DNA of 46,893 nucleotides, taken from IMG/VR virus record IMGVR_UViG_3300045007_000064, positions 124,236 through 171,128 of that record; one strand, given 5' to 3'. Both the position numbers and the translations under genes were made by a program. This stretch comes from a virus. Lineage: Duplodnaviria; Heunggongvirae; Uroviricota; Caudoviricetes. The notes under the pieces were generated by a model that ran no database searches, had not been told where the DNA came from, and saw only the letters and a program-made list of their open reading frames with translations. Shown here piece after piece: positions 24,462-42,032 of this stretch (its first letter is position 1; each line of letters starts with the position of its first letter).

Positions 24462-26483
24462 TTAGCTGTTGGTGTTGACCAGGGCAGCAGCGGCACCGGA
24501 GACCTTGAAGGTCTGAGTGATCTTCAGAGACTCGATACCGATCTTGGCGACACCCTCGAAGGTCTCAACGAACATGCGGTAGTCGTTCGTGCTGACCAGA
24601 GTCGAGTCACGGATGATACCGATGTCGAGGCTTCCGCCGTCGAGGAACAGCCAGGTGCCCTCGGAGAACAGGAACCAGTCGAAGGTGACTGCGCCCGTTC
24701 CGTCCGGGTCCCAGGAGTTGAGTGCGCCAGGAGCCTGCACGCCGTACTCGTTCAGGTCGTACGAAGCGGTGAAGCTAACGTTCGAACCGGACAGGTAGCC
24801 GCGGATTTCTCCACCGGTAACACCCAGAGTGTCGTCACCCGGCATCTGGAGCGTCAGGTCAGAGGCGATAGCCTCGAACAGCCAGTTGGGGATGATCGCC
24901 TGAAGCGGCGTCTCCAGCGGCAGACGGTGACGCGAGCGGTACTGCGTAGCAGCCTTGCGAACCGTGACGAGGAAGTCACGAGCGACACCGACCTGGTTGG
25001 AAGCGTTGACGGCAGTGGAGCCTGCACCGATCTTTGCCAGGATGGTCTTCTCTGCGAGACGAGCGTGCTGGATGAGGGCCAGCTCGTTGTGACGCTGAAC
25101 CAGCTCAGGGTATGCGCGGCTCAGAAGGTTACCGATCTGGAGCTGAAGGGTGATAGCGTCAACCTCGGCGTAGCGAGTCTGCGCACCCTGGACAACCAGA
25201 ACGTTCTTCAGGACATCGGCACCGGAGCCGCCGTTGTTGGCAGCAGCCTCGTCCATGTCAGGCGTCCATACGCCGACAGCGCCAGCGTAGTCAGCGAGCT
25301 GGGGCGGCTCGATGTAGTTGATGGCACCACGGTCGGCCTGGAACTTCGGCAGGGAGTCCTTGACGGGACGTGCGTCGGTACCAAAACCGAAGATGTCGTA
25401 GCGCTGAGGAGCGGGGGTACCGAAGCCACCGGAGGCGACAATGGCAGCGTGGTCCTCGATTGCTGCGGCGATCTTCAGGCCGTTGGCCTCTTCAGCACCG
25501 GCGAGGAGCGTACGGTCCTCGGGGTACTCGGTACGGAACGAAGCAACAACGTGCTGCTCGCCGTCTCCACCAGATGCACGCTTCACGGTGCGCAGGCGCT
25601 CCACGAATGCTGCTGCAACGGCAGACTTGTCGGATAGAATGCTGCCTGCCGAGATGTTAGGAATATCAGCACCCGCAACAATGGCCACGGGAGCTTCTGT
25701 AACCTGGAGGTCTACGGCGCGGTCAGCGGGAGCCTGTGCGGTTCCCTCAACTGATGCGGTCACGGTCTGTGCCTCTTCCTGAGCAGCTTCCTGCTCAACT
25801 GGGGTTTCTTCTGCGATTGAAGCTTCTGCTTCGACGGGTGCTTCCTCTTCGGCTGCAATCTCTTCGACTGCGGCCTCTGCCTCGGCGGGGGTGGTAGCCT
25901 CTTCGGCAACTTCCTCAACTGCGGCCTCAGCCTCAACCTCGGTCGTCTCCTCCGCTGCGGGAGCATCCTCTACGGCTGCTTCTGCGGCGGTCTCTTCGAC
26001 TACCTCGGCTTCTTCGACTGCTGCCTCAACCTCGGGGGCTGCTTCAGCGACAGGCTCCTCGACTGCTGCTTCCTCTACGGATGCCTCAGTCTCAGAAATC
26101 TTTTCTGGGGTTTCGCTCACGGCTTCGACCTCCTCGGTTTCAGCAGATGCGGTAACGGCGGGAGCTTCCTCCTCGACCTCCGGTGCGTCCTCGGACTCAG
26201 GAGCCTCAGCGGTCTCCTCTTCGTCCTCAGCCTTACCGTGTACACGGTTTGCAGCCTCAGCCGCGCGTGCCTCAAGCTCTTCAGCCTGGGCCTCACGACG
26301 AACTACCTCGCCACGTACGGAGTCGAGCATGTCAGCCAGCTCGCTCATTGCATCTACTGACTCTGCGGAACGGTCGGCTTCTGCGAACTCATCAAACTGC
26401 GAGACAATGCTGGCTTCGAGAGCAGAAATCTGCTCGTCGTTCAGCTCAGCTAGATTGTCCATCTGCGCCTTGATGTGATCCAC
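24462..26483 (-). CDS. major capsid (hexamer) protein with long acidic N-terminal scaffold region
   Basis: GTG at 26483 with AAGGAGG RBS; E/A-rich N-terminal half, then about 320-aa capsid region after AIVASGG (FLDGGSLDIGIIRDSTL..NDYRMFVETFEG). Confidence 0.88.
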   Translation of the reverse strand: MDHIKAQMDNLAELNDEQISALEASIVSQFDEFAEADRSAESVDAMSELADMLDSVRGEVVRREAQAEELEARAAEAANRVHGKAEDEEETAEAPESEDAPEVEEEAPAVTASAETEEVEAVSETPEKISETEASVEEAAVEEPVAEAAPEVEAAVEEAEVVEETAAEAAVEDAPAAEETTEVEAEAAVEEVAEEATTPAEAEAAVEEIAAEEEAPVEAEASIAEETPVEQEAAQEEAQTVTASVEGTAQAPADRAVDLQVTEAPVAIVAGADIPNISAGSILSDKSAVAAAFVERLRTVKRASGGDGEQHVVASFRTEYPEDRTLLAGAEEANGLKIAAAIEDHAAIVASGGFGTPAPQRYDIFGFGTDARPVKDSLPKFQADRGAINYIEPPQLADYAGAVGVWTPDMDEAAANNGGSGADVLKNVLVVQGAQTRYAEVDAITLQLQIGNLLSRAYPELVQRHNELALIQHARLAEKTILAKIGAGSTAVNASNQVGVARDFLVTVRKAATQYRSRHRLPLETPLQAIIPNWLFEAIASDLTLQMPGDDTLGVTGGEIRGYLSGSNVSFTASYDLNEYGVQAPGALNSWDPDGTGAVTFDWFLFSEGTWLFLDGGSLDIGIIRDSTLVSTNDYRMFVETFEGVAKIGIESLKITQTFKVSGAAAALVNTNS

Positions 26484-26602
26484 GTTAACCTCCTTCAGGC
26501 CAGTTTCTAAATAGCAGAACGGTTCCACTATTTGTCGGTGGATTTCGGGGGGTCCGGGATTCATCCGCGCTCAGAGGCGGATTGGCGCTTGACCTGTGTA
26601 CA

Positions 26603-26621
26603 ATACTAACACAGAATTATA
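26603..26621 (-). promoter_or_regulatory. capsid gene promoter candidates (TATAAT; TGTTAGTAT)
   Basis: Two -10-like elements just downstream of the terminator, about 120 nt before the MCP start. Confidence 0.5.
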
Positions 26622-26640
26622 TAGGTGATTTTTTGACACC

Positions 26641-26668
26641 AAAAAGCCCCCTCCGGAGAGGGGGCTTT
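26641..26668 (-). terminator. intrinsic terminator after protease gene
   Basis: AAAGCCCCCTC-TCCG-GAGGGGGCTTT stem ending in TTTTT on the minus strand. Confidence 0.85.
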
Positions 26669-26678
26669 CATGGTTGAA

Positions 26679-29600
26679 TTAGGTGAGAAGCCGCAGGAAA
26701 CGGCTCATCTCGCGAGAGATTTCAGCCTGAGAGAACATGTCTCCACCGCTCATGAAGGAGCGGAGCTTAGCCGTGGCCTTCTGTCCTTCCGCACTTCCGA
26801 TCTTGTCGTGGACTCGCTTTACGAGGTCGTCCATGAGGTCACGAAGCGTGGGCGGAATGTCCGAGAAACGCATCTTGGCAGCCTGGTTATCGAACGGCAA
26901 GGGCAGGTTGGAAATCGCGCGACCAAGGTCACGAGATGCCTCACGCACATTACCGATCTGGTCGGAATTAAGCGCGCCCTTGTCAAGACGATCCAGGTGG
27001 CTCTTTAGTTCCAGACCCGCGCGTACGGACTCGGCGTAGTCTCCTGCGCCCTTTCCGATAGCTTCAATCGAGTTGGCGATTTCGCTGTTCTGTTCGTCTC
27101 CAAGGTCTTCCTTCAGGCGGGCTAGAACCTGCTTGAACTGACCGTTGTAGTCGCGGGGCTGGTAACCGGGCTTGTACTTTGCGGGCTGGTCCCGAGCGGG
27201 ATCAGCCCCCTCAGCTTTTGGGGCCAGGTCCTCCGGAATCTCCTCGCCCTTAGCTCGAAGACTATTGATGAGACGCTGACGTTCCGCAGGAGAGAGCTTC
27301 TTCAGGTCGTCCTCAACCGAGGCAACCAGCGCGGTCTCGTTGCGAGCAGCCTCCACGCGCTCACGCATAGACATGAGGGACGCGGTGATCGCGGCAGACG
27401 CGGCGTTCTTCCAGTCTTCCGGAATCAGGTCAGCCTTACCGAGAGCACGGGCGCGCTTCATGATGTGCTTACGTACCTTGGCACGCTCGCTCTCCTTGGC
27501 ACGTCCGTACGCCTTGATAGCATTCTTCAGGTCGGATTCGTTACGGATCGGGTAGGAGCCGTCAGGAAGAGCCTCGCCCTTCTCTGCCGCCGCATCACGA
27601 GACTTCTTCGACACGTAGCCGAAGGTCTCCATGCGAGCGGTGATAGCGTCAGCCTTGGCGCTCAGCTCCGCGTCACGGCGAGCCTTGTGGCTTCCCACGC
27701 GCTCCATGAGCGAGGCAACCAGGGCCTCGTCAACCTGAGCTTCCTTGGCGACAGCCGCACCCGCGGCTTCGAGGTCCTGCACACGACGTGCGAGGTCCAG
27801 GATGGGGTCCGGACGCAGGCGAGCCAGCTCAGACGCACCAGCAGCCGTGAGGGCCATGGTGTGACCGGAGGCGACCATTGCGCGAGCGATGGGGAATCCA
27901 GGGACGTTGACCTGGCAGACCGCAATCAGCTCCAGCTTTCCACGGATCGGACGCCAGTCACCTGAGGGGGTGGAGGCGCGGATCGCGCGGACCTGCTGGG
28001 CGGTAACGCCGGGGCGGAGTGCTCCCGCAACCCAGATACCGTGGCGGTCTTCGCCTGCATGAACGTCCGCGAAGGCGGATGCCGTGTCGTCGTAGTGCTT
28101 GACGGCCTCGTTAGCGCTGAAGTGGAGGTCGGCGTGTCCGCCCACAAGTGTGAGCTGTCCGACTGTCACATCTGTACCGTCATCGGTACGGATTACACCC
28201 TTGTTGAAGTAGGCGTATCCCGACGCGGAACGTGGCGGGTTGACCCCACCGAGCGCCGCATTCATGTGAGCGGTACCCCAGGCGGCAACGTGACCGAAGA
28301 CGCGACCGTTGTCATCGACCGTTAGTGGGGTCGGACGGTCGAGCTTGGGGTCGTTGAACCAGTCGCGGGGCGGTACAACCGGGATAGCGTCTGCGATGTA
28401 ACCGGCTGCTACGAGAGCAACCGCCTCCATCGGGTCCGCTTCCTCGGTAATGATGCCGTCTGGTAGCACGTCATCCTCCAGGGTGAGTTCGCGCAGGGGT
28501 GCCATTTCGATTGTGCACTCCTGGAAAGCAGGCTTAGCTACTATTGTAGCACCCATGACTCGCGCCTTCTTGATGGAGAGCTTCTGCTTGGCGATTGCAC
28601 CAGGCTTCTTCTCGGCAGCCTCTTCGGCTTCGGCCTCGAACTTGTCCATGTCAGCGGAAACGTGACGGAGCATTCCGGCACGCACCATGCGCTCAGCCTC
28701 ACGACCGTACGGGCCTACGTCGAAGTAGCCCATAGCCATACCGATACCCTGAGGCGTACGACCCATCGAGTCGATACGTCCCACGACAACCGCGCCATTG
28801 TGACCCTCTCCGGTCTGAATCTGCCACATGAGCGGCAGGGGTAGGTTGCGGGTGTCCAGAGCGTAGCGCTCGACCTCGCGACCGTCACCAGACTCCAGCT
28901 CCTCGGGGATGACGAGCGGGATCAGGAACTTGCCGCCGACCATCGAGATTTCGCCAGCCGCGCCCGCGGTCATCGCAGCGATGTAGCCCTCCTTACCGTC
29001 CGGGTAGACGGTGTAGAGCGGGTTGGACGCAGCGGATGCAGTGATGACGCGCTCACGAAGAACCTCGGCGCGGGCGTTCTGGAACGCAGCAGCGATAATC
29101 GCATCCGTGTCCTTCAGAACATCCGTGGAGGACATTTCGATGGCGGTATTCGAGGAGAACTTCTGGCGGTGCTCCTTGTCTCCGGTGTACATGCCGGTGG
29201 CCTCCTTGTGGCGCAGGGCGCAGTAGCCACGCGCACGCGGGCCTAGATACTTCGACAGGTTGCGGAAGCAACGAGTCCAGTCACCAGGCGTACCCCAGCG
29301 AATCTTCGCAGCACCTTCACCGTGCAGCCAGTAGCGGCGCAGCTTCTCAGCGCCACCGCGGTTACGGTCTGCACCACCGGCAGCGACAAGCGCCTGCTCC
29401 ATGATGTTCTTGTTGGGACCCCACAGGACCATGAGCGCGAACTGCTCATCGGCGCTGGCGGTGACCGACCCGGCATCAGGCTCGGTGGGAACCGCAACCG
29501 GCTCCGCAGCCATCGGGGCCTCTTCCTGGGCACCCTGAGTTCCATCAACCTGAACGAGCACGTCATCCAGAGTGGACTCATCGAGGGCCACAACGGGCGG

Positions 29601-31319
29601 CGGGGTGGCACTCTTCAGGTCACCTAGGGTGGCCTCGTCACGCTTCCACTCGCCCTCTTCGCGGGAGTAAACCATCGGCTGGTTTGACTTCGAGTTCGCC
29701 GGTACCAGGCTGATGAGCTTGAATACGGCGCGGGGGTCGTCCGGGGAGACGATGGCCATGTAGACCGGCTCAACGTCAGAGGTCTCAGGAGAAAGCTCAA
29801 CCGGCTTCTCTACGGCTGCCGCGGTGAGCGGACGGTAGGTGGCCTTGGACGCCTTCTTCTTGAGCCAGTCCGTCAGGAGCGGGTGCGAGTACGCTTCGGT
29901 GTCCACCGAGCGTCCGGTGCTAGCACGGCGAGACGGGCTGGTGCCTTCGCCCTGGACTTCGCCAGAGCTTCCGGTGGGGCGGAAGGAATCGCGCTGCTTC
30001 TTCACCCAAGCGGGGAAGTTGTCGATGATCTGCTTGAGGTCACCTCGCGTCATCTGCGGAAGCGTGCCCGGGAGCTGGGCGACCTTGCGGTCAACCGGCG
30101 TACGAGGCTCAGCGAGGATACCGCTGAAGTCTACGCGGGGCTGCGCGAGCGGATTACCTGGCGCAGGCATACTGCCCTCGGTAACAGCCTCAACCTGGTT
30201 ACCAGGAACGGTAACCTTGTTGCCGTCAGGGAGTGTAACCTCGACGGTGCCGTTCGCGCCATTGACGCGAGAGATAAGACCGGTCTGCTGCGGGTTGCCG
30301 TTGATCATAACGGTCGAACCCATCTTGGCAAACTGTCCGCGACCGTCACGGACCTGCTTCGAGGCGTTGGCGGAGCGCTCTTCCTCGGAGTAGATTCCGT
30401 CTCCATCTGCACCGCCCGGGGTTCCGGCTGCGGTGATGGAGTCGATGAACGCCCAATCCTCTTCCGCCAGGGCGTCGAGGGCGAGAGCCGTTTCCACCGG
30501 AGAAATGTCTTCCACCGTGAAGGTGGTGATGCCCTTCGAGATGAGAGTGGCTGCGTGTAGCGCGCTCTCCGGGTCGATCATGATGTGGGTCTGATCGATA
30601 CGGGGGTGCTTTCCGTCTAGCGCAAAGTCGTAGTCCCAGATGTCCCACTCGGTCTGTCCGAGGTCAGTCCAGGCGCTGGCGTCCCACACATAGGTGCGCT
30701 TGTCCAGGTCGATGCGGTACAGACGGTCCATGATTCCGGTCGTGCTAGAAATACGCACGAGGAATTCGGGACCAGCCTCAGGGTTCTCTTCGAGAATCTG
30801 GGCGAGGTTTTCGGGAGCCTTCGGAGCGGATGCGGTCAGCGCCTCACGCTCGAAGATCGGGGTGACCCACTTCTTCGCGGGTAGGCCTCCGTGGAGACGC
30901 CAGGCGGTGCTGTCTTCTTCCTCGGTGTTCGAGAAATACTCAGCGAGAATGCCTAGCTCGTTGAAGCTGATCTGTCCACCGGCTGCGAGAAGGGTACCGA
31001 TGTAGCGTGCTACCGGTCCCTCGCTGTCGGATGCCGCGGTCAGCGCCTTGCGCGCGTTGAGCTGGACGCCACGGGGCACGGTGTACATGCGTCCCGTAGG
31101 CTCCGGGTCAGGATTCTCCAGGCTCGCAAGTACCGTGGAAGCAATTTCCTGATCGGTGGCAGAGAACTCCCCATCGCCCCAGGCCTCGGCACTTTCCAGA
31201 GTGGAAAAGTCGCCAGAGGTAACTACGAGCGATACTCGGGAGTCAACAATGACACCATGCGTCTTCTCTGCGTCCGAGAAGAGGAGATGGTTGTCGGATC
31301 GACCAATGAACTCTGTCAT
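26679..31319 (-). CDS. capsid maturation protease multidomain polyprotein
   Basis: Between portal and MCP; PEELESGDGR...LPLPLMWQ...GHNGAVVVGRID protease-like domain; second PPRDWF..SGDWR..VNVPGF domain; ALPDGSYPI DUF6582-like domain. Confidence 0.75.
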   Translation of the reverse strand: MTEFIGRSDNHLLFSDAEKTHGVIVDSRVSLVVTSGDFSTLESAEAWGDGEFSATDQEIASTVLASLENPDPEPTGRMYTVPRGVQLNARKALTAASDSEGPVARYIGTLLAAGGQISFNELGILAEYFSNTEEEDSTAWRLHGGLPAKKWVTPIFEREALTASAPKAPENLAQILEENPEAGPEFLVRISSTTGIMDRLYRIDLDKRTYVWDASAWTDLGQTEWDIWDYDFALDGKHPRIDQTHIMIDPESALHAATLISKGITTFTVEDISPVETALALDALAEEDWAFIDSITAAGTPGGADGDGIYSEEERSANASKQVRDGRGQFAKMGSTVMINGNPQQTGLISRVNGANGTVEVTLPDGNKVTVPGNQVEAVTEGSMPAPGNPLAQPRVDFSGILAEPRTPVDRKVAQLPGTLPQMTRGDLKQIIDNFPAWVKKQRDSFRPTGSSGEVQGEGTSPSRRASTGRSVDTEAYSHPLLTDWLKKKASKATYRPLTAAAVEKPVELSPETSDVEPVYMAIVSPDDPRAVFKLISLVPANSKSNQPMVYSREEGEWKRDEATLGDLKSATPPPVVALDESTLDDVLVQVDGTQGAQEEAPMAAEPVAVPTEPDAGSVTASADEQFALMVLWGPNKNIMEQALVAAGGADRNRGGAEKLRRYWLHGEGAAKIRWGTPGDWTRCFRNLSKYLGPRARGYCALRHKEATGMYTGDKEHRQKFSSNTAIEMSSTDVLKDTDAIIAAAFQNARAEVLRERVITASAASNPLYTVYPDGKEGYIAAMTAGAAGEISMVGGKFLIPLVIPEELESGDGREVERYALDTRNLPLPLMWQIQTGEGHNGAVVVGRIDSMGRTPQGIGMAMGYFDVGPYGREAERMVRAGMLRHVSADMDKFEAEAEEAAEKKPGAIAKQKLSIKKARVMGATIVAKPAFQECTIEMAPLRELTLEDDVLPDGIITEEADPMEAVALVAAGYIADAIPVVPPRDWFNDPKLDRPTPLTVDDNGRVFGHVAAWGTAHMNAALGGVNPPRSASGYAYFNKGVIRTDDGTDVTVGQLTLVGGHADLHFSANEAVKHYDDTASAFADVHAGEDRHGIWVAGALRPGVTAQQVRAIRASTPSGDWRPIRGKLELIAVCQVNVPGFPIARAMVASGHTMALTAAGASELARLRPDPILDLARRVQDLEAAGAAVAKEAQVDEALVASLMERVGSHKARRDAELSAKADAITARMETFGYVSKKSRDAAAEKGEALPDGSYPIRNESDLKNAIKAYGRAKESERAKVRKHIMKRARALGKADLIPEDWKNAASAAITASLMSMRERVEAARNETALVASVEDDLKKLSPAERQRLINSLRAKGEEIPEDLAPKAEGADPARDQPAKYKPGYQPRDYNGQFKQVLARLKEDLGDEQNSEIANSIEAIGKGAGDYAESVRAGLELKSHLDRLDKGALNSDQIGNVREASRDLGRAISNLPLPFDNQAAKMRFSDIPPTLRDLMDDLVKRVHDKIGSAEGQKATAKLRSFMSGGDMFSQAEISREMSRFLRLLT

Positions 31320-31331
31320 GAAACTCTCTTT

Positions 31332-31895
31332 TTACTCGCCTAGGGCTTCATAGCCCGCGGCGTCTGATACCGTTACGTAATTTCGGTCATAGAGGTCAAG
31401 GAATTCCTTGGCCTTGGACGGCTCGATTTCGATGCGGTCCATGTCTGCGTAGGTGGTGTCATCTCCGGCGATAGGCAGGAACTGCCCGCCCTGGCGAACC
31501 CAGGACCCGTCTGCCGTCTCGTACGTCACACCGAGCACGTAGGGAGAATCCCCCGAGCTGAATGCGCTGAGCACTTCTGTAGCCACTGTTTCTCCTGTTG
31601 CGATGCTGGGAAGGGCGTCCACGGGTAGCGGAACCTTCAATGCTGAAAGCCAGATTCCGTCTGCTTCACGAAGCGGACGCCAATTGTACTTAGACTTCTT
31701 AGTTGACAGTACAATTCTAGCAGAGTTGTCAGTCTGCTCAATTCGGGCCACCTTTAGGACCTCTACACCGGCAGGTCCGACAATACGAACCTCAGATTCG
31801 GAGTCGTCTACGAGAAGAGCGGCGGCGAACTTCGGCTCATCGCCGGGGGCCGTGATGACCCCCGGCTCAGAGCGAAGCGGCGTGAAGTTTGACAT
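31332..31895 (-). CDS. hypothetical head-module protein
   Basis: 187-aa ORF with AAGGA RBS, tightly packed between the two giant head genes. Confidence 0.7.
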   Translation of the reverse strand: MSNFTPLRSEPGVITAPGDEPKFAAALLVDDSESEVRIVGPAGVEVLKVARIEQTDNSARIVLSTKKSKYNWRPLREADGIWLSALKVPLPVDALPSIATGETVATEVLSAFSSGDSPYVLGVTYETADGSWVRQGGQFLPIAGDDTTYADMDRIEIEPSKAKEFLDLYDRNYVTVSDAAGYEALGE

Positions 31896-31906
31896 GGGTG
31901 TTTTCC

Positions 31907-34900
31907 TTACGGGGTGTCGAGGTAGTCTCGAACGTCAGCTCGATCCTGGTCACTAGCGCCCATCATATCAAGAAGTGCGTCCAGTTCGGTAATCGTCGGA
32001 CCCTTTGGACCAAAACTTCCCAGGGTTTCCAGAATCTGCTCGTAACGCAGACGGCTGAGACCAGGATCAAGGATACCACGCATAATCAGGTTACGAATTA
32101 GCTGCGGCATGTCCGTGTTGTCTAGGGACTCTAGAACATCCGTGCGCTCCTCGCGGGTGATGTCCTGGTAGGAGGCGGGGCGGATGTTGGACTCCAGGAT
32201 ATCGATGGTCTCGTTACCCGGGGTCACGACCGTCAGGTTTCCGTTGTCATCATCGAAGGCCACGACACCGTTCTCCACGACACCGTTACGGTCGAACTCA
32301 ACCAGATCACCACGGCGGGTGTTCTTCGGCTCCGGGGTCTCCGGACCGCGGATTGCCGGAGCGTTCCATAGCGCGATGTCTGCATCACCCGGAACCACGA
32401 AGCTGTCCACGTCCGCGTAGCCGCGTCCGTCCGGACGTGCTGCGTGAATACGGTAGCCACCGTCACCCATGTTCTCCACACGGATAATCGAGTCTACGTG
32501 CTGGTTTCCGTCATCGTCCATACGAACGATCATCATGCCCGGGCGAGCTTCGGATGCACGACCAATACGCGGCGTGATTTCACCGCTCTGAATCATACCG
32601 GCAATCGTCGGCTGGTCCTTGGGCACCGGAACATTCGAGTAGCCGGAAAGCGATCCACGAGGCGTGAAGCGAAGGCGGCGGCTCTGTGGTAGGTCACGGC
32701 GCGGGCGTTCCTTGGTGACAACCGGCTCGTCTGCTGCTGCGTTCGGAACGCGGAAGCGGCGAGCAAGCGCCTCTGGGCTGGTGCGCCACTCTTCACGCTT
32801 GGAGAAGAACGGCAGGCCCAGAGCCGAACCCGGCTCAGCACGGCGTAGCGTCTGCGCAGAACGCTTGACCCAGTTGCTCCAGGTTCCGTCCGAGTTCTGA
32901 AGCTGGACCCATACGTGGTCACCGTAGGTGTGGCCCTTACCGTCCGTGTTCTCCTTGACGTAACCGACAACACGACCGCGCTGCACCTGACCGTAGCTCG
33001 GGTTGGCGCGGCGCTTCGGGTTGAGCTGTCCGTTCGGAAGCCACCAGTCGAGTTCCTGGTGCCAGTCAGTCCAGTCAAACTCCATGCCGATTTCAGCGGT
33101 CTCACCGTCGTACATCTGCCACGGGTTCGTGCCGTTCGGACGGTAGGTGTCCTGCGCACGACCGATGACAGCCTGCATGATGGTGTCAATGGCCTTGGCA
33201 CCCGGGTCAATCTGACGGAGGTGGTCTTCGATTCCGGCGAGGTCTGCGTCCCCATTGCGGATGTGCGTAGCCACCGCGCTCAGAAGTACGTCGAACTTCT
33301 CGTCACCTGTCTCCGGAAGCGGTGCGTCCGGGTTGCCGATGTCACCGAGGAAGTCGTCAGCCGGGAAGCCCTGGGTCCCCAGGTTCTCCGTGGGCTGGTC
33401 CTTGCGGCGCGTGATCGATCCCGCGGGGCTGGAGCCGTTGATCAGCTTGCGAGCCGTGGTGATACGGTTCTCTAGCGCCTCGTACGAGTGCCATTCGCTG
33501 TTGCTGATTCGCTTGGCGCGGCGGTTACCTACCTCGTCCGTCTCCATGACGTAGGCCATGAAGCGATTCTTCTGGGTACGACGAACAATGGCATCATAGC
33601 GCTTACCCTTATTGGTCACGCTATCCACAACCAGGTCACCGTTCTCCAGGAGACGAGCCTCGGGGTGATCCTCGTTCAGGTACTCTTCCTGGACACGACG
33701 CCAGGTCAGGTCCTCATCGAAGACGAAATCGGGGTCATCGCGCTCGGCGTTGACAACTTCAACGTCTGCGGTGTTCAGGTACTCAGGCTGGTCCGTCTCC
33801 GGGCGTGCAACCGTGGTGGTGTTTGCGCGGTTGGGCTTGCCGTCTAGCGCGTTGTCCAGAGCGGAAAGCTGGTTGTCGGAAAGCATGCCAGAGTTCAGCG
33901 CCTCGGTGATGACGCGCTGCTCGTCAGGGGTCAGCTCCTTACCCTGCATCTTGGCCTTCAGCGCTTCGATGCGGTTCTCGTGTCCGCTGGAGACGTTGCG
34001 CGGGTCGTCCTTCTGGTCGAAGACACCTCCGGTACCCTCACGCGGATCAATGTCGCTGAGGGTTTCGTCAACGCGAGCCGCGTCCACCAGAACGCGCTGC
34101 GCGGTCTCCTCGAAGGTCTCCGGCTCCGGGGCAGCCTCGACATCGCTCTGCGCCTCTAGCGCAGCCATCTCGGCTTCTGCCTCAGACTGGCGCTCCAGCG
34201 TACGAAGCTCGTCCTCCAGCGCGTCACGGCGAGCCTCCAGCTCGTCGTACTCCTCCGAGTCCCAGTCGTCGGACTCGATGAGCATCTGACGGCGCTCAGC
34301 CTCGGTCTGCTCCAGGCGCATACGGGCCTGAGCAATCTGTGCGTCAAGCGAGTCGTCCAGAATAGCAGGCGTATCGGCCTCAGGCGCGTCCTGTACGGCC
34401 TCGGGAGCCTCGGGAGCGGTCTCGGGTGCCTCAACCGGTTCTGGAGCCTCAGGGAGGCTTCCACGGTTCTCTCGGTCACGCATGTTCCAGCCGAGGTCGC
34501 CGTTGAAGTCCATCGGCTCGTTACCCAGGGCGCGGTTCAGGGCATTCTCCTGAATCTTACGCTGACGCTCCAGCGTGCGGACGCGGGACAGGTGCTCGGC
34601 CTCGACCTGCGGGTCAGTAGCCAGCTCGGCAGCAGAAATCTGGTTCTCGATTTCCGCGTCGATTGCCTCAAGCTCTGCACGGGCTGTAGCTGCGGCGTCT
34701 GTGTTACCTGGCTCCTGGTACTCCGGGCGCTCGGGAGCGGGGGCCGCCGCAGGCTCCTCCTTCCGGCGCTCGGCTTCTACGATAGCGGTGCTGGCGGCAC
34801 GACGACCTTCTTCCGAGGAGTCGTATACGCGCACCGGAACCTCAGTAAGCCCTGCGCGCTTAGCGGCCTCGGCGCGGTGGTTACCGTCCGTAATCATCTC

Positions 34901-37306
34901 GCTACCATCCGGGTACTGCTCGACCTGAATGGGTTCGCCCTCGTATCCGTTCTGACGGAATCGCTCAGTAAGCTCGTCTACAAACTCCTCGTTGATTCCC
35001 GAAACCATACGGATGTTGTCCAGGTCAGCCACCGGACGAGTCTCGTCTGTGATCGGACCCTGGATGCGGTCTAGCTGCTCTTCGCGACGGCGTGCAACTT
35101 CCGGGGCCTCCGGACGGGTGCCAGCCTCGTCGGTCGCGTAGTGCGAGCGAGAACCCTGGGTGTCGAAGTGGTCACCGCGGGTGACGTAGCCGGTCGGTTC
35201 ACCAGAGCCGTCACGCTTTAGCTGCTCCCACTTTCCGGCTTCGTTCTTGCGGTAGATACGCTTATCACCGCTCTCGTCATGCTCCTCAGCGATGAGGGAG
35301 CCTGCCGGAGCGTTCTTGACTTCTTCCTTGGTCGGAGCCAGCTTGTTCGCGGCCCACGCCGAAGGATCAACCTCCGGCTCCGCGTCTGCCTCCGCCTCCG
35401 GGGCGTCAGCCTGTGGGGCAGCGTCGGACTCGTTGCGTTCCTTCTGACGGGCTTCAAGCTCCTGGAACTGCTCCTCCAGGTCGGCAACCTCGTCAAAGAG
35501 TCGGTCGATGTCCTCCTGAGCCTTCTGGTCCTCTTCCTCGGAGGTCGAGGCGTTCAGACGGCCCAGTGCGTCCGACTCGCGCTTCTGCGCATCACGAAGA
35601 CGCTCCGCGACCTCATTGATACGAGCGTCCAGGTCCTCGTTGTCTGGAGCAGAATCCGGCGTCTCCTCAGGAGCGGTGCCGCGCTCACGAGCGAGACGAG
35701 CGTCTAGTGCATCCGCCTGCTCATTGAGCGCGATGATGTCCTTGGGGTCCCCGGCTACGTCCATAGCCGCCTGCACCTTGGCGCGGCGGTCCTTCAGGTC
35801 CTCTACTGAGCCTGGGGCTGCTGCGGGTTCGCTGGGGCGCTCGTCTGCGGCGCGGGGGCTGTCTCCGGCGTTGTCGGCTGGGGCGTCTCCTGCGGGGCGG
35901 GCTGGCTCGGGGTCGGGGGTGTCTGAGACGGCTGCTGGCCCCCCATCTTCGCTACGAGGCTCTGGGCGAGCTGCGTCATCTGCTCCGGGGTTAGCTGGCT
36001 GAGATTCGACGGCATCGGGATTACGGTCTTCGGCATTGGGGGCCTCCGCGGAAGTGTCACCTTCCAGGTTGGGGTTTACGTCGGGGGAATTGGGGTCCAC
36101 GGCCTTGTCAGACACCGATACCTCGGAGCCATTCTGGAGGTCGAGAACCGTGCTCTGACCCAGGCCACCAGCCTGCGCCTTCGCGTTGTCTAGAGTGTCA
36201 GCAGAGTTGTAGATTTCTGCCGTGTTGTTGTCGGTGTCCACAACCAGGCGTGCGCCGCCCTTACCGAGCTGTTCCTTCTCGGCGGTCATGAAGTTCGCCA
36301 GGCCCTCGGGGGTAATGTCGTTGGTGCGCTTACCGGTGGGTACGAGGAATCCCTCAGGAGAAACCTCAAACGTGCTGGTGTCGATGGCACCCGTGGAGGC
36401 CTGCGGAGCCTGGGCGGTCTCAGCAGCAGGCGCAGCCTTGCGCGCAGCCAGAGCCTCGTCCGAGTCGTTGCCTTCGGGGTCGTACGGCTGGCCCTCGGCT
36501 TCGAGTTCCTTCTTCAAGGTCTCGTTCGCCGTCATGGCGGTCTGCTTGGCTCCCAGCGGGGCCTTCTCGTTCAGGAGGGTACGCTCGTTCGCCTTGATCT
36601 GCTCGATCTTGGAATCACGGTCACGATTTGCCAGAACCTCATCGTTGTTCTGCGCCAGACCGGTGTAAGCGGAGTCCCCAGACTCCTCGCGCTGGAGGTC
36701 AACGTCGGAGACCTTCTTGAACGCCTCAGCCATCGAACGCTGCGGCTCAGCCTGACCGGGGTTGGCGCGGTGGTCCTCTAGGAGAACGTTCTCGTCGTTT
36801 CCACCGAAGTGAACACGGAAGTCACCGTCGTCGGTCTGGATGACCTTCTTGCCGCCGTAGGTTCCCGGCTGAGCAACCCAGCCCTCGGGAGCCGGGTGAA
36901 CCTGAAGCTCATTGATGTTAGGGATGTCCTCGTCCGCACGCTCGCCTACGGCCTGACCGTCAGCGTTACGTCCGAGCTGAATGCCGCGCTCAGCGAGCTG
37001 GGCCTCAGAGAGGTTGGCTACGAACTCCTGCGCGTTGGCGGAGGTGACATCATAGAAGCCGTCAGGCAGGCCGTTCGGGTCCTTGGCTACGAATACCTGT
37101 CCGGTGTTTGCGTCCTTGGCACCGACGAACGAGCCGATTACCGAACGTGCCGCGCCGTCAGCACCGCGCACCTTGAACTTGACGCCGCGACCCATCTCGA
37201 TCCAGCGACCGAAGCGGTCACGCCACTGGAGTCGGGCGCGAGCGGATCGGGCAGCGCGGCTGTTGCCTCCTGCGGCAACGAGTGCGGAAAGAGAAGTGTC
37301 GAACAC
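31907..37306 (-). CDS. giant acidic head-associated protein with ParB/Srx-like domain
   Basis: 1799-aa ORF directly after portal; GAGGA RBS with GTG start; coiled coils and a DGNHR motif. Confidence 0.8.
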   Translation of the reverse strand: MFDTSLSALVAAGGNSRAARSARARLQWRDRFGRWIEMGRGVKFKVRGADGAARSVIGSFVGAKDANTGQVFVAKDPNGLPDGFYDVTSANAQEFVANLSEAQLAERGIQLGRNADGQAVGERADEDIPNINELQVHPAPEGWVAQPGTYGGKKVIQTDDGDFRVHFGGNDENVLLEDHRANPGQAEPQRSMAEAFKKVSDVDLQREESGDSAYTGLAQNNDEVLANRDRDSKIEQIKANERTLLNEKAPLGAKQTAMTANETLKKELEAEGQPYDPEGNDSDEALAARKAAPAAETAQAPQASTGAIDTSTFEVSPEGFLVPTGKRTNDITPEGLANFMTAEKEQLGKGGARLVVDTDNNTAEIYNSADTLDNAKAQAGGLGQSTVLDLQNGSEVSVSDKAVDPNSPDVNPNLEGDTSAEAPNAEDRNPDAVESQPANPGADDAARPEPRSEDGGPAAVSDTPDPEPARPAGDAPADNAGDSPRAADERPSEPAAAPGSVEDLKDRRAKVQAAMDVAGDPKDIIALNEQADALDARLARERGTAPEETPDSAPDNEDLDARINEVAERLRDAQKRESDALGRLNASTSEEEDQKAQEDIDRLFDEVADLEEQFQELEARQKERNESDAAPQADAPEAEADAEPEVDPSAWAANKLAPTKEEVKNAPAGSLIAEEHDESGDKRIYRKNEAGKWEQLKRDGSGEPTGYVTRGDHFDTQGSRSHYATDEAGTRPEAPEVARRREEQLDRIQGPITDETRPVADLDNIRMVSGINEEFVDELTERFRQNGYEGEPIQVEQYPDGSEMITDGNHRAEAAKRAGLTEVPVRVYDSSEEGRRAASTAIVEAERRKEEPAAAPAPERPEYQEPGNTDAAATARAELEAIDAEIENQISAAELATDPQVEAEHLSRVRTLERQRKIQENALNRALGNEPMDFNGDLGWNMRDRENRGSLPEAPEPVEAPETAPEAPEAVQDAPEADTPAILDDSLDAQIAQARMRLEQTEAERRQMLIESDDWDSEEYDELEARRDALEDELRTLERQSEAEAEMAALEAQSDVEAAPEPETFEETAQRVLVDAARVDETLSDIDPREGTGGVFDQKDDPRNVSSGHENRIEALKAKMQGKELTPDEQRVITEALNSGMLSDNQLSALDNALDGKPNRANTTTVARPETDQPEYLNTADVEVVNAERDDPDFVFDEDLTWRRVQEEYLNEDHPEARLLENGDLVVDSVTNKGKRYDAIVRRTQKNRFMAYVMETDEVGNRRAKRISNSEWHSYEALENRITTARKLINGSSPAGSITRRKDQPTENLGTQGFPADDFLGDIGNPDAPLPETGDEKFDVLLSAVATHIRNGDADLAGIEDHLRQIDPGAKAIDTIMQAVIGRAQDTYRPNGTNPWQMYDGETAEIGMEFDWTDWHQELDWWLPNGQLNPKRRANPSYGQVQRGRVVGYVKENTDGKGHTYGDHVWVQLQNSDGTWSNWVKRSAQTLRRAEPGSALGLPFFSKREEWRTSPEALARRFRVPNAAADEPVVTKERPRRDLPQSRRLRFTPRGSLSGYSNVPVPKDQPTIAGMIQSGEITPRIGRASEARPGMMIVRMDDDGNQHVDSIIRVENMGDGGYRIHAARPDGRGYADVDSFVVPGDADIALWNAPAIRGPETPEPKNTRRGDLVEFDRNGVVENGVVAFDDDNGNLTVVTPGNETIDILESNIRPASYQDITREERTDVLESLDNTDMPQLIRNLIMRGILDPGLSRLRYEQILETLGSFGPKGPTITELDALLDMMGASDQDRADVRDYLDTP
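34820..35032 (-). other. ParB/sulfiredoxin-like domain within the 1799-aa protein
   Basis: VDELTERFRQNGYEGEPIQV...ITDGNHRAEAAKRAGLTEVPVRV. Confidence 0.75.
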
Positions 37307-37337
37307 TATGCGTCCTCAATTTTGGGGCGTGGAATAG

Positions 37338-37370
37338 ACTCCCCCTATCGTACCAGACGACAGGGGGAGT
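37338..37370 (-). promoter_or_regulatory. hairpin with embedded extended -10 (TGGTACGAT, 37347-37355)
   Basis: 14-bp stem (one G-U), 5-nt loop after the portal stop; weak U tract. Confidence 0.5.
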
Positions 37371-37377
37371 GATGGAC

Positions 37378-39117
37378 TTACTGTCCGGGTTCTGCGAGCG
37401 GGAATGGCGGGGCGTCATCCCCAGGAGCAACCGGCTGCTCCGGTTCAGGCATGATGTCGCCCACTGTGGGCTGCATCGGGTCCTGCGGCGGTGCGTCTGA
37501 AGGCTGTGACGTGTCCAGCGGGGCGTTGGGGTCAGCAGGTACCGCACCCGTTCCTCCGTTGAGAATGTCGTTGACCTGTCCCGGAACCGGGGCAACCGAG
37601 GTAGCCTGTCCTGCACCGCGAGCGGCGTCGATGACATCGGGGGCCAGAACACGAAGCAGGGCCTCGGTGAGCTGCGGGTCCAGTCCACCCTTCTCCAGCA
37701 GCATGCGGAGCACAAGCTCCTTGCCGGTGGGAGCATCCTGATCTGCGAAGCCGTGGGCACGACGCCAGGTGTCACCCGAGATTGCCATCTTCTCATATCC
37801 GGAGTCGGCGTCAGCCGCGCGGTCATTGCGGGTCGCAACAGCGCTGGCGTCATACCAGACAGCGATACGGGATACGTCAGCCTGGCTCCATCCGTCGTTG
37901 ATGAGGGTGGGGCGCAGGTACATCGTGGTGAAGGCGTCAGCCAGCAGGAGCAGCATCGGCTCAATGTGGGCCTTGTACAGCGACTCGTCAATCTGGACGG
38001 CGTTGTTGTACTTCACATTTGCCAGACCGGTAACGGTGTCCTTGGGAACATCGAGACCCTGGAGGATACGCTCTAGAACGCGGTCAGCACGCGCAACCAT
38101 GGCGTCATCAAACGGACGGTCGAACGAGATGTGCTTCAGGTCCTTACCCAGCTCGGCAGGGCCGCGGATCAGAAGAGGCACAACGCTGGCGGCGCTGGAC
38201 TCATCCTCGATGGGCGTGGACATCGCCAGGAGAAGTTCTTCCTGGAACTGGTCGGCTACGTCCTCCGGCGTGGGGGCGTCCTCGTCCTGCTCTTCGAATA
38301 GACCGGAATCCGCCTCGGCGGAAGTAGACAAGCCGTCCGGAACGTACAGGATACCGGCATTCAGACGCGAACGGTGCGACCCGCGGAAGGTGCGGTCCAG
38401 AAGCAGAAGCTCCTCGCACAGCGCCAGCAGACCGATCATGTTCGTGTCCGGGTCCTCGCTGAAGCGGGGGTGCGGACGCCAAATGCGTCCCATGAACGCA
38501 TCGGACGGCAGCGGGATCGCACCCTTGGGCAGTGCACCGCCGCCGTTGCCAGGCTTGATCGCGCGGCGCGGGTAGATAGCGTAGTTGCCCTTGGCGTCAA
38601 CCTTCAGCTCGTCTACCGAGCGAATGTCCCAGCTCTCCGGCAGGCCCTGACCGATGCGCTCGGGCACCTGGACCAGGTAGCACTCACCGGCAACGGCGAG
38701 GTTCAGCGCGGCGTCACGGAGAAGTCCTGCCTGTCCGCCGAAGGCGGAGTCCAGACGCTCTAGTGCACGGCGAGCGGCGTCTGCAAGTTCTGCGTCAACC
38801 TTCTCAGACAGCGCCAAAGGTACGGGAGACTCAGCCGGGTCTTCCACGACCGCCACATATAGGCGAATTCGTGAAACAACGCTTGCCACGAGCTGGAAGG
38901 CGTACTTGACCTCGGAAATGGCGTCGTAGTACTCCCACGCCGCCTGCTGGACAGCAACGATCTGCCCGCCCTGCGCCTGACGGAACAGCTCCGCCTCGGT
39001 CTTGTCCTTGAGACTCACGCGCGCAGCAGCAGCGGTCATGCCTCGTACGGAGTTATACGGTACGGGCGCAACCGGCTGCGTGCTCGCTGTCTCGCGGCGG
39101 AAGATGTTGCCTGCCAT
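37378..39117 (-). CDS. portal protein
   Basis: 579 aa from ATG 39117 (TAATG overlap); AWEYYDAISEVKYA, GECYLV, WRPHPRF, ILQGLDVPK patterns of actinophage portals. Confidence 0.88.
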   Translation of the reverse strand: MAGNIFRRETASTQPVAPVPYNSVRGMTAAAARVSLKDKTEAELFRQAQGGQIVAVQQAAWEYYDAISEVKYAFQLVASVVSRIRLYVAVVEDPAESPVPLALSEKVDAELADAARRALERLDSAFGGQAGLLRDAALNLAVAGECYLVQVPERIGQGLPESWDIRSVDELKVDAKGNYAIYPRRAIKPGNGGGALPKGAIPLPSDAFMGRIWRPHPRFSEDPDTNMIGLLALCEELLLLDRTFRGSHRSRLNAGILYVPDGLSTSAEADSGLFEEQDEDAPTPEDVADQFQEELLLAMSTPIEDESSAASVVPLLIRGPAELGKDLKHISFDRPFDDAMVARADRVLERILQGLDVPKDTVTGLANVKYNNAVQIDESLYKAHIEPMLLLLADAFTTMYLRPTLINDGWSQADVSRIAVWYDASAVATRNDRAADADSGYEKMAISGDTWRRAHGFADQDAPTGKELVLRMLLEKGGLDPQLTEALLRVLAPDVIDAARGAGQATSVAPVPGQVNDILNGGTGAVPADPNAPLDTSQPSDAPPQDPMQPTVGDIMPEPEQPVAPGDDAPPFPLAEPGQ

Positions 39118-39392
39118 TATCCTACCTTCTGGTAAATGAGGCCTGTTACAGCCGATCCCGCTAGGGGAAGTCCAGCTACCATCATACCAGTAGGTGAAAC
39201 TACGTACAGAATAGCGAGAGGAATCGCTACCCAGAATGACATACACCACGGGCAGCCGAGTAGATATGCGAGCTTTCCACCAGGCTTGACCTTGGAGTAC
39301 GCCCAGTCACGCGGCCCATCCAGGATTTCGTCCTCGATGATGAGCCGCGTGGCTCGATAAACGGCGAGCAGAAATACGATGAAGCGGATCAT
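39117..39392 (-). CDS. membrane protein (DUF1360-like)
   Basis: LAVYRATRLI.ED.I...CPWCMSFWVA with hydrophobic helices. Confidence 0.7.
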   Translation of the reverse strand: MIRFIVFLLAVYRATRLIIEDEILDGPRDWAYSKVKPGGKLAYLLGCPWCMSFWVAIPLAILYVVSPTGMMVAGLPLAGSAVTGLIYQKVG

Positions 39393-41538: not shown

Positions 41539-42032
41539 CTTACTCTCCTTGCCATTGCGCGGTAGCTGACGTTCGCGGCGTCCGCGAGGTCAGCGATGGT
41601 TACGCGCTCGTCATGGTGCAGTCTAACACAAAGCTCGGTCAATTCCCTATTCGACTTTGCCGAGGCGTGTCCCGGCTTCATCGTGGCGCGGTACTTGCGG
41701 GCGCTGGGAGCCAGCTCCTTGATCCGTGTAGCCTCGGCTGTCGTGAGCGGGCGTCGGGGCTTCTTCGGAGTGCTGGCGGGGGTCTGGAGCGTTGGGATAG
41801 GTGTAGTTGGCAGATCAGTATACGCGGACGCAATGGGAATCGGTGAATTGATCCAGTAACGAATCGTGGATCGTGCCCGAGGCGGGTCAAACGACTCCCC
41901 GATACTCCGGAGTGTCCACCCCGCCTGGTACAGCATCTTCGCTCGCGCGAATAGCTCGTACCCGGTAAGGTTCTGTAGCAGTTCTGCTTCGTAGGAGGGC
42001 AACGACTGCCCTCGCGCGGATCGGCGTGTCAT
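41535..42032 (-). CDS. helix-turn-helix DNA-binding protein (two HTH-like units; small terminase not excluded)
   Basis: GWTLRSIGESF..PRARSTIRYW and VTIADLADAANVSYRAMARR. Confidence 0.65.
   Translation of the reverse strand: MTRRSARGQSLPSYEAELLQNLTGYELFARAKMLYQAGWTLRSIGESFDPPRARSTIRYWINSPIPIASAYTDLPTTPIPTLQTPASTPKKPRRPLTTAEATRIKELAPSARKYRATMKPGHASAKSNRELTELCVRLHHDERVTIADLADAANVSYRAMARRVS

Follow-up and report, generated by a model that had tools for sequence, protein, structure and literature searches.

A short alanine-centred motif in the head proteins of a Microbacterium phage as the likely cleavage code of its own head-maturation protease

Results

Motif-bearing head genes of a Microbacterium siphophage

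We studied a 46,893-nucleotide stretch of DNA (the window; positions 124,236 to 171,128 of the Caudoviricetes record IMGVR_UViG_3300045007_000064) that forms the structural arm of a Microbacterium siphophage. Within it, a short motif, [LIVM][TV]A[AS], recurs in four head proteins: the portal, a protein of 1799 amino acids (aa), a 1546-aa head polyprotein and the major capsid protein (MCP). In its fuller form, A-[LIVM]-[TV]-A-[AS]-[GA], the motif is likely the recognition site of the phage's own head-maturation protease, which would be made within the 1546-aa polyprotein. The genome record is 171 kb long and its relatives 186-195 kb, the nearest being the phages Zooman, Big4, A3Wally, Cece and Pumpernickel.

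The genes run on the minus strand in the order large terminase (42029-44359), portal (37378-39117), 1799-aa protein (31907-37306, directly after the portal), 187-aa protein (31332-31895), 1546-aa polyprotein (P0001; open reading frame (ORF) 26679..31319) and MCP (24462..26483), followed by the tail genes. The polyprotein gene matches the PHROG families 859, 18402 and 6439 and sits between the portal and major capsid genes, as prohead protease genes do. The MCP matches phrog_777 (E = 2e-70) and has 1918 homologues. For both the portal and the MCP, the longest ORF (37378-39249 and 24462-26564, respectively) overruns the gene. The portal probably begins with the ATG at 39117, which is also where an earlier interpretation made from the DNA alone (the sequence-only reading) had placed it, and the MCP probably begins with the GTG at 26483, which an AAGGAGG ribosome-binding site precedes. 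Residue numbers counted in these long ORFs are too high by 27 (MCP) and 44 (portal); ORF residues of the MCP below refer to the long ORF.

The polyprotein is laid out as N-terminal cargo modules, a small Cys/His domain (residues 648-758; 29046..29378), an S78/assemblin-like protease domain (domain 1, residues 787-942; 28494..28961), a second conserved domain (domain 2, residues 972-1147; 27879..28406), where conservation within the protein is highest, and a helical C-terminal region (residues 1161-1546; 26682..27839). These domains, and all motif sites given below, lie on the minus strand.

Enrichment of the motif in head proteins

The sequence-only reading had counted 13 copies of the motif in the polyprotein and estimated that chance would give about one. 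All 13 are present, within a few bases of where it had put them, and composition would give 1.0. In 5000 shuffles of the protein the count never exceeded 6, and the Poisson p is 6.4e-11. Across 240 heuristically called ORFs of the whole 171-kb genome, 38 matches occur where 24 are expected, and the four head proteins hold 20 of the 38, or 4.3 per 1000 aa. The other proteome holds 18 matches in 43.5 thousand residues, which is 0.41 per 1000 aa and at expectation (Fisher p = 3e-11). An equal frequency in tail or early proteins would have spoken against the sequence-only reading; the observed rates differ as given, and tail proteins of 1445, 1230 and 1537 aa contain no copy at all. When [ASPG] is required before the motif, 16 of 23 genome-wide matches fall in the four head proteins. 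Three non-head matches in the window were checked in orthologues, and none was kept.

Codons vary between the motif copies of the polyprotein, and BLAST of the protein detected no internal repeats. The motif is therefore a short signal at the protein level, neither a DNA repeat nor a duplicated domain.

Conserved candidate sites in the polyprotein

The polyprotein has 857 full-length-type homologues, among them orthologues in Zooman, Big4, A3Wally, Cece and Pumpernickel. Site conservation was counted in an alignment of 120 full-length homologues of metagenomic and phage origin (identity 38-86%), the denominators being the sequences that possess the stretch concerned. These 120 homologues hold 1053 motif matches versus 108.7 expected, and a set of 120 shorter protease homologues holds 314 versus 47.5. 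Seven columns are deeply conserved, at residues 295, 498, 619, 644, 759, 969 and 1157, where 55-96% of sequences match strictly and the rest often carry close variants.

Closest to the N-terminus, LTAA at residue 93 (31032..31043) is clade-specific (11/120), and LTAS at residue 161 (30828..30839) is strict in 39/120, with Asp or Gly at position 4 in many others. They are followed by ITAA at residue 295 (30426..30437; 90/120), LTAA at residue 498 (29817..29828; 86/120), VTAS at residue 619 (29454..29465; 82/120) and LVAA-GG at residue 644 (29379..29390; 82/118). ITAS at residue 759 (29034..29045), just upstream of the protease domain, is strict in 63/113 sequences, others having Gly at position 4, while LVAA-G at residue 969 (28404..28415), between domains 1 and 2, is strict in 70/115, another 30 reading LVAC. 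Next come MVAS-G at residue 1148 (27867..27878) and LTAA-GA at residue 1157 (27840..27851), the latter being the best conserved site (109/113). The series ends with LVAS at residue 1200 (27711..27722), which is clade-specific, ITAS at residue 1311 (27378..27389; 46/78) and LVAS at residue 1331 (27318..27329; 30/71).

An AlphaFold2 model of residues 763-1220 shows two folded domains. Low confidence by the predicted local distance difference test (pLDDT) marks the linker after site 759 and the linker positions of sites 1148 and 1157, and site 969 falls in the connector between the domains. In the five orthologues and in Actinomycetia phage DSL-LC01, the sites occupy the same alignment columns and their letters swap within the motif (LTAS/VVAS/IVAS; ITAA/VVAA/MVAA); in A3Wally one site has moved by a few residues inside its linker (residue 488, against 498 in the window). 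Across the 120 homologues, the Ala at position 3 is near-invariant at every site, and position 4 allows Ala, Ser, Gly, Cys and Asp. The earlier estimate of about nine products is a fair one, since cutting at the seven deeply conserved sites would give eight pieces and cutting at all 13 would give 14.

The polyprotein of DSL-LC01 is annotated as three 'capsid maturation protease' ORFs (L002 9001-13920). We considered this split as a guide to natural boundaries and rejected it, as the breaks do not fall at motif sites. The first break interrupts a conserved block and resembles a frameshift, which could be programmed or a sequencing error.

Modules and inserted domains of the polyprotein

Insertion hotspots in relatives lie on average 16 aa from a motif site, versus 56 aa when randomised (p = 0.006). 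One hotspot is 3 residues from site 498, and the largest is at site 644. Inserts recognisable by Pfam comprise ferritin-like/Dps domains (PF00210), DUF5824 and 2H phosphoesterase-like domains (2_5_RNA_ligase2), and most are bracketed by the motif. For example, the homologue P0302 carries a 2H phosphoesterase-like domain at 530-647, inserted at the position of the window's site 498, with motif sites at 506 and 670. Ferritin-like domains are found in P0320 (1479-1614; sites at 1449 and 1651) and P0349 (1796-1921; sites at 1721 and 1964), and DUF5824 inserts are bracketed likewise. The homologue P0327 is an exception, its ferritin-like domain having a motif site upstream only. Speculatively, ferritin-like cargo within an HK97-fold shell recalls encapsulins, and a 2H phosphoesterase, once packaged, might be injected and serve in counter-defence. 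A feature search of the ESM Atlas with residues 164-621 of the window protein gave no match.

The Cys/His domain, which matches phrog_6439 and lies between sites 644 and 759, begins with G-G-A-D-R-N-R-G, and its conserved residues include Cys, His and Trp. It is widely kept, and forms the C-terminus of gp77 in Gordonia phage Sixama and of gp74 in Arthrobacter phage Atuin. At the other end of the protein, long helices are predicted from residue 1157 onwards, and profile matches of the C-terminal region are solely to coiled-coil and apolipoprotein-type proteins. Judging from these models, the region may be a scaffold or a binder of the capsid interior.

A separate sequence module, Q-x-R-D-x-x-G-x-[FW], has three copies genome-wide, all of them in the two giant proteins: at 30329-30355 (residue 322) and 27134-27160 (residue 1387) in the polyprotein, and at 37202-37228 (residue 27) in the 1799-aa protein. 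Each copy follows a motif site at a distance of 15-55 residues, and the Sixama equivalent of the 1799-aa protein, gp73, has a similar R-G-A-D-G-R-F right after its N-terminal site. This module may be a capsid-targeting or DNA-binding signal that remains on mature N-termini.

Motif sites in the capsid protein, portal and 1799-aa protein

The MCP consists of an acidic, scaffold-like N-terminal (delta) part of ~350 aa followed by a capsid-fold region of ~322 aa, the size of an HK97-type mature capsid protein. Going by its phrog_777 match and the Rosebush capsid paper, the C-terminal part probably has the HK97 fold; when the MCP and the protease region were compared by sequence with solved structures, no match was returned. 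At the boundary between the two parts stands A-IVAS-GG (ORF residues 375-378; 25431..25442), where similarity to Mycobacterium cluster B capsid proteins also begins. We aligned 140 MCP homologues, each representing one cluster at 50% identity, and the strict motif is found at this boundary in 121/139. The column reads A (120), I/L, V/T, A (139/140), A/S (136), G, G, x, C, A, P.

Upstream, the delta part carries A-VTAS-A at ORF residue 137 (26145..26156), VTAS at residue 268 (25752..25763) and VVAS at residue 339 (25539..25550; 57/140 homologues). The two VTAS copies and IVAS-GG are those named in the sequence-only reading, which had overlooked VVAS and a relaxed IVAG at residue 295. The MCP family as a whole holds 398 motif matches versus 83 expected and, with the boundary site excluded, 5.9 matches per 1000 aa in the delta part versus 1.1 in the mature part. 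Such a density is the pattern expected if the delta domain were chopped and the shell protein spared.

In the portal, G-MTAA-A occupies residues 27-30 (39028..39039) when counted from the ATG at 39117, with counterparts at residues 25 (Cece), 24 (Qyrzula) and 14 (Pam4). A second portal match, LVAS at ORF residue 120, lies in a conserved stretch and misses the usual flanking residues; it may not be a site. The 1799-aa protein has A-LVAA-GG at residues 9-12 (37271..37282), after an 8-residue leader. Both N-terminal matches had been noticed from the DNA. In both proteins the leader diverges among relatives and the motif stays. For the 1799-aa protein, Zooman, A3Wally and Cece have either LVAA or LTAA (LTAA in Cece), and Sixama gp73 has A-LTAA-F at residue 18; the Pumpernickel equivalent is LVAV. 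By analogy with the internal proteins of T4, the N-termini of the portal and the 1799-aa protein look like removable leaders.

The 187-aa protein has a near-motif, V-I-T-A-P-G, at residues 13-18, which reads V-L-T-A-P-G in Zooman and Cece. Between the portal and the giant protein, two relatives have an extra 611-aa gene (Zooman gp69, L005 1230-3065; A3Wally gp84, L006 783-2618) that is absent from this window and from Cece. Its product reads L-T-A-P-G in Zooman and L-T-A-A-G (residue 24) in A3Wally. Variants with Pro at position 4 may be uncuttable or pseudo-substrates.

A protease fold and a second conserved domain

The sequence-only reading had assigned the protease to the 1546-aa gene. A gp21/assemblin/S78-like domain is indeed present there, and the placement, which had been loose, can be fixed by the fold match to residues 787-942. 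Domain 1 is modelled with pLDDT above 90 and has a fold like those of T4 gp21, herpes assemblin and HK97 S78. In a fold search, residues 25-180 of the AlphaFold2 model (corresponding to 787-942) matched T4 gp21 at Z 10.4 (127 residues, rmsd 3.7), varicella-zoster virus (VZV) protease at Z 9.2 and its human cytomegalovirus (HCMV) counterpart at ~7-8, unrelated rows having Z 5.6 or less. Furthermore, an ESM Atlas cluster that is 100% Peptidase_S78 (PF04586) matches domain 1 at TM 0.78 over 142 aa, and many BFVD prohead proteases match it as well. His840 and Ser888, 48 residues apart, are invariant in 41 sequences and are most likely the catalytic pair, an assignment based on order, spacing and invariance. 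The sites at 759 and 969 would free a 210-residue protease, the usual size for the S78/assemblin-like family. Fold and gene position together suggest that the domain belongs to the S78/assemblin clan.

Sequence profiles pick up this relationship faintly. Pfam and NCBIfam searches with six polyprotein segments returned the weak S78 match alone, and no MuF domain was detected in the 1546-aa protein. In homologues, Pfam S78 scores 25.8 bits for P0382, aligned to window residues 835-939 and above the 21-bit cut-off, and 18.9 bits for Atuin. The PHROGs label 'head maturation protease' covers residues 977-1207, not the fold-matched 787-942.

Domain 2, which lies largely under that label, is the sole piece common to all motif-bearing phages examined. 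Its model when folded by itself was poor (pLDDT 51.5), and the fold search made with it was uninformative (best Z 3.7; Z 3.0 for T4 gp21). No match that would support protease activity emerged from fold, Pfam/NCBIfam or profile searches, the profile search giving helical proteins only. A relationship between domain 2 and domain 1 was considered and rejected (hhalign probability 0.2%). In Gordonia phage Sixama (NC_070762.1), the head module (L007/L018; 30011-43428) has domain 2 as gp79 with the motif sites kept, and searches across the whole record detected no S78-like domain. The Gordonia phages GodonK and Clown have GenBank 'capsid maturation proteases' of 330-370 aa, which is domain-2-sized. 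In phages of the Sixama type, either the protease is too divergent to see or domain 2 is the enzyme.

The motif follows the head module across hosts

The same motif stands in the same places, the MCP boundary included, in Arthrobacter phage Atuin, the Mycobacterium phages Qyrzula (B2) and PDRPxv (B1), Gordonia phage Sixama (with Ile at position 2) and the Pseudanabaena cyanophage Pam4. Qyrzula gp12-14 hold 9 matches versus 1.8 expected, and 47 other Qyrzula proteins hold 11 versus 10.0.

The motif is absent from Mycobacterium phage Omega (cluster J), which shares its host with the cluster B phages and whose protease and capsid are unrelated to this module. The N-terminus of the Omega capsid protein has been measured and maps after ...EEYR (PMC3706429). 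We considered this cluster J cut as a precedent for the module and set it aside, the protease, the capsid and the site all being different. The presence of the code in phages of several hosts and its absence from Omega argue against a host protease; the code follows the phage module, not the host.

Discussion

Every computational test run, whether of enrichment, conservation, motif placement or protease fold, supports the cleavage-site interpretation that the sequence-only reading had proposed. From these observations we infer cleavage, the bond, the enzyme domain and the fate of the pieces as follows. The 1546-aa polyprotein would be built into the procapsid, where the protease would then be activated. 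It would free itself and its neighbouring modules at the seven deeply conserved and ~6 lineage-specific sites, chop the ~350-aa delta domain of the MCP and thereby release a mature capsid protein of ~322 aa. It would also trim ~29 residues from the N-terminus of the portal and take a leader of 11-12 residues off the 1799-aa protein. The enzyme would most likely be the S78/assemblin-like domain at residues 787-942, with His840 and Ser888.

As for the bond, position 3 is a near-invariant Ala and position 4 a tolerant small residue, which is a P1/P1' pattern and therefore points to a cut after the Ala, A-Phi-[TV]-A|[AS]-[GA]. By sequence and by analogy with assemblin, we lean towards this bond; a cut one residue later is the less probable choice.

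Several points weigh against the protease code as set out here, or against parts of it. The Pfam S78 score of the window protein is 15.3 bits, below the 21-bit cut-off. In Sixama the motif is kept although no S78 domain can be detected, and the S78 domain may therefore not be the enzyme of the code; this lowers confidence in which domain cuts, not in the identity of the cut sites. The MCP boundary motif adjoins the very conserved G-G-x-C-A-P, and its conservation could be partly structural. Homologous positions sometimes have Pro or Val at position 4, and the protease may spare such variants. The bond after position 4 could equally be the one that is cut, which would fit a rule of small residues at -3 and -1, or V-A-A|G. 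The former is a generic rule, and the latter is the pattern of LexA-type self-cleavage. Finally, the literature searched held no N-terminal or semi-tryptic data for phages with this module: the actinophage capsid dendrogram preprint, a 2025 Nat Commun paper and the cluster O and Pam1-5 papers contain no cleavage data, and the Rosebush capsid paper and its supplement (PMC7150772) give percent coverage only.

The identity of the enzyme is where an alternative carries some weight. The sites may be cut as proposed and the code be read by domain 2, as an unrecognised type of capsid protease acting alone or with the S78-like domain. Domain 2 is the only component in every motif-bearing phage examined, the Sixama-type Gordonia phages included. 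It is rich in invariant His, Ser, Asp and Cys residues, and is bracketed by the self-sites 969 and 1157, which may be called the two best conserved. PHROGs and GenBank label domain-2-only proteins 'head maturation protease', a label that may reflect annotation transfer. Set against this, the fold, family and domain comparisons described above lend protease activity in domain 2 no support, whereas the protease fold of domain 1 is clear and includes a conserved His-Ser pair, and in four of the five other lineages the two domains occur together; Sixama could moreover encode a protease too divergent for detection. We regard a reading of the code by domain 2 as unlikely, though worth keeping in view. 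It would be less likely still that the motif is uncut and acts as a docking or assembly signal of proteins incorporated into the procapsid, for instance as a short strand binding the capsid interior, scaffold or portal. The motif's restriction to head-incorporated proteins and the structural segment beside its MCP copy would suit such a signal, and Q-x-R-D-x-x-G-x-[FW], common to the two giant proteins, makes targeting signals plausible. Docking would hardly explain 13 signals in one protein at domain junctions and beside cargo insertions, nor why the additional copies are spread over the disposable delta domain and not over the mature fold. Placement behind short N-terminal leaders fits known propeptide removal, and the motif resembles the protease rule of the same fold family; on this evidence, docking is improbable.

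The remaining explanations concern the host and composition. Host proteases can process phage heads, as the host Prp protease does with head proteins of Staphylococcus phage 80alpha, and the motif would fit generic small-residue -3/-1 rules. The same code is nonetheless found in phages of four actinobacterial genera and a cyanobacterium, always with this gene module, and is missing from Omega, another phage of Mycobacterium smegmatis with a different protease and a cut measured elsewhere. Nor is the motif enriched in the non-head phage proteins of the same cytoplasm, and a host enzyme is very improbable. A chance effect of composition might be suspected in head proteins that are 13-17% Ala. 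The 1799-aa protein is equally Ala-rich and yet has a single match, at its N-terminus. This, the 13 copies against 1.0 in composition-matched expectation and shuffles, and the positions kept across hundreds of homologues leave chance with practically no probability; we consider it already refuted. A code read by the phage's own protease, as proposed, accounts best for these observations and is held with good, if incomplete, confidence.

Processing by prohead proteases is textbook knowledge, and usable cleavage rules are available for few phages, such as T4, phiKZ and SPN3US. The assemblin consensus is reportedly (V/L/I)-X-A|S, as described by Welch and colleagues in 1991 and by DiIanni and colleagues in 1993. 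If the cut follows position 3, the present motif resembles it: P3 is hydrophobic, P1 is Ala and P1' is a small residue, Ser or Ala. Assemblin (UL26/UL80a) is made as a protease-scaffold precursor with release and maturational sites, and it shares its fold family with domain 1. Like the polyprotein as proposed, this precursor holds the protease in a longer chain with a helical C-terminal part and releases it at flanking sites (PMC4498786). The two systems differ in that P2 here is Thr, Val or Ile and P4 mostly Ala, in the number of sites (13 versus 2-4), in the large cargo modules that precede the protease and in a capsid protein with its own scaffold-like domain; identity is 10-14%.

T4 gp21, the best structural match among the systems compared, phiKZ gp175 and SPN3US gp245 also apply one motif across head proteins, at the capsid propeptide, at short leaders of injected or internal proteins (IPI-III and Alt in T4) and in the protease itself. 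Enzymes of the gp21/gp175 type cut after Glu, at [LI]-x-E and [SAG]-x-E. In the present motif, by contrast, the invariant residue is Ala and there is no Glu, which places it outside the Glu-directed specificity class, and the protease is part of a multi-module chain of 1546 aa instead of a separate small protein. HK97 gp4/gp5 offers an S78-type protease, a scaffold-like N-terminal capsid domain to be cut at several places and, as here, no separate scaffold gene between the protease and capsid genes. Unlike in HK97, the delta domain is ~350 aa long (versus ~100), the protease is fused to cargo and a second conserved domain, and the code is a different and much more regular one.

Fusions of a protease to other modules in head genes are known from actinophage 'capsid maturation protease and MuF-like fusion protein' and polyvalent head proteins. 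The homologue of residues 658-1164 in Arthrobacter phage SilentRX is so annotated, and Phage_Mu_F or 2_5_RNA_ligase2 domains occur in ESM Atlas neighbours. We found no cleavage code described for these fusion and polyvalent proteins, and the motif itself was not found described in the literature. According to a 2022 preprint on actinophage capsids, it cannot be predicted where the delta domain is cleaved.

If the code holds, the mature N-termini of the capsid protein, portal and internal proteins would become predictable from sequence, as would the domains that enter the capsid as separate pieces. This would apply to a module present in roughly 800-1000 phage records of Mycobacterium (shown for cluster B), Gordonia, Microbacterium, Arthrobacter, Streptomyces and at least one cyanophage, and carried also by thousands of metagenomic relatives. 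The prediction is directly testable in easy hosts such as M. smegmatis and M. foliorum. Should domain 2 turn out to read the code, the polyprotein would be a general platform for loading cut-out cargo, such as ferritin-like and 2H phosphoesterase-like domains, into capsids. The proposed code would, if it holds, tie a clade of HK97-type phage proteases to the Ala|Ser rule of herpes assemblin, and would thereby bear on the age of this specificity.

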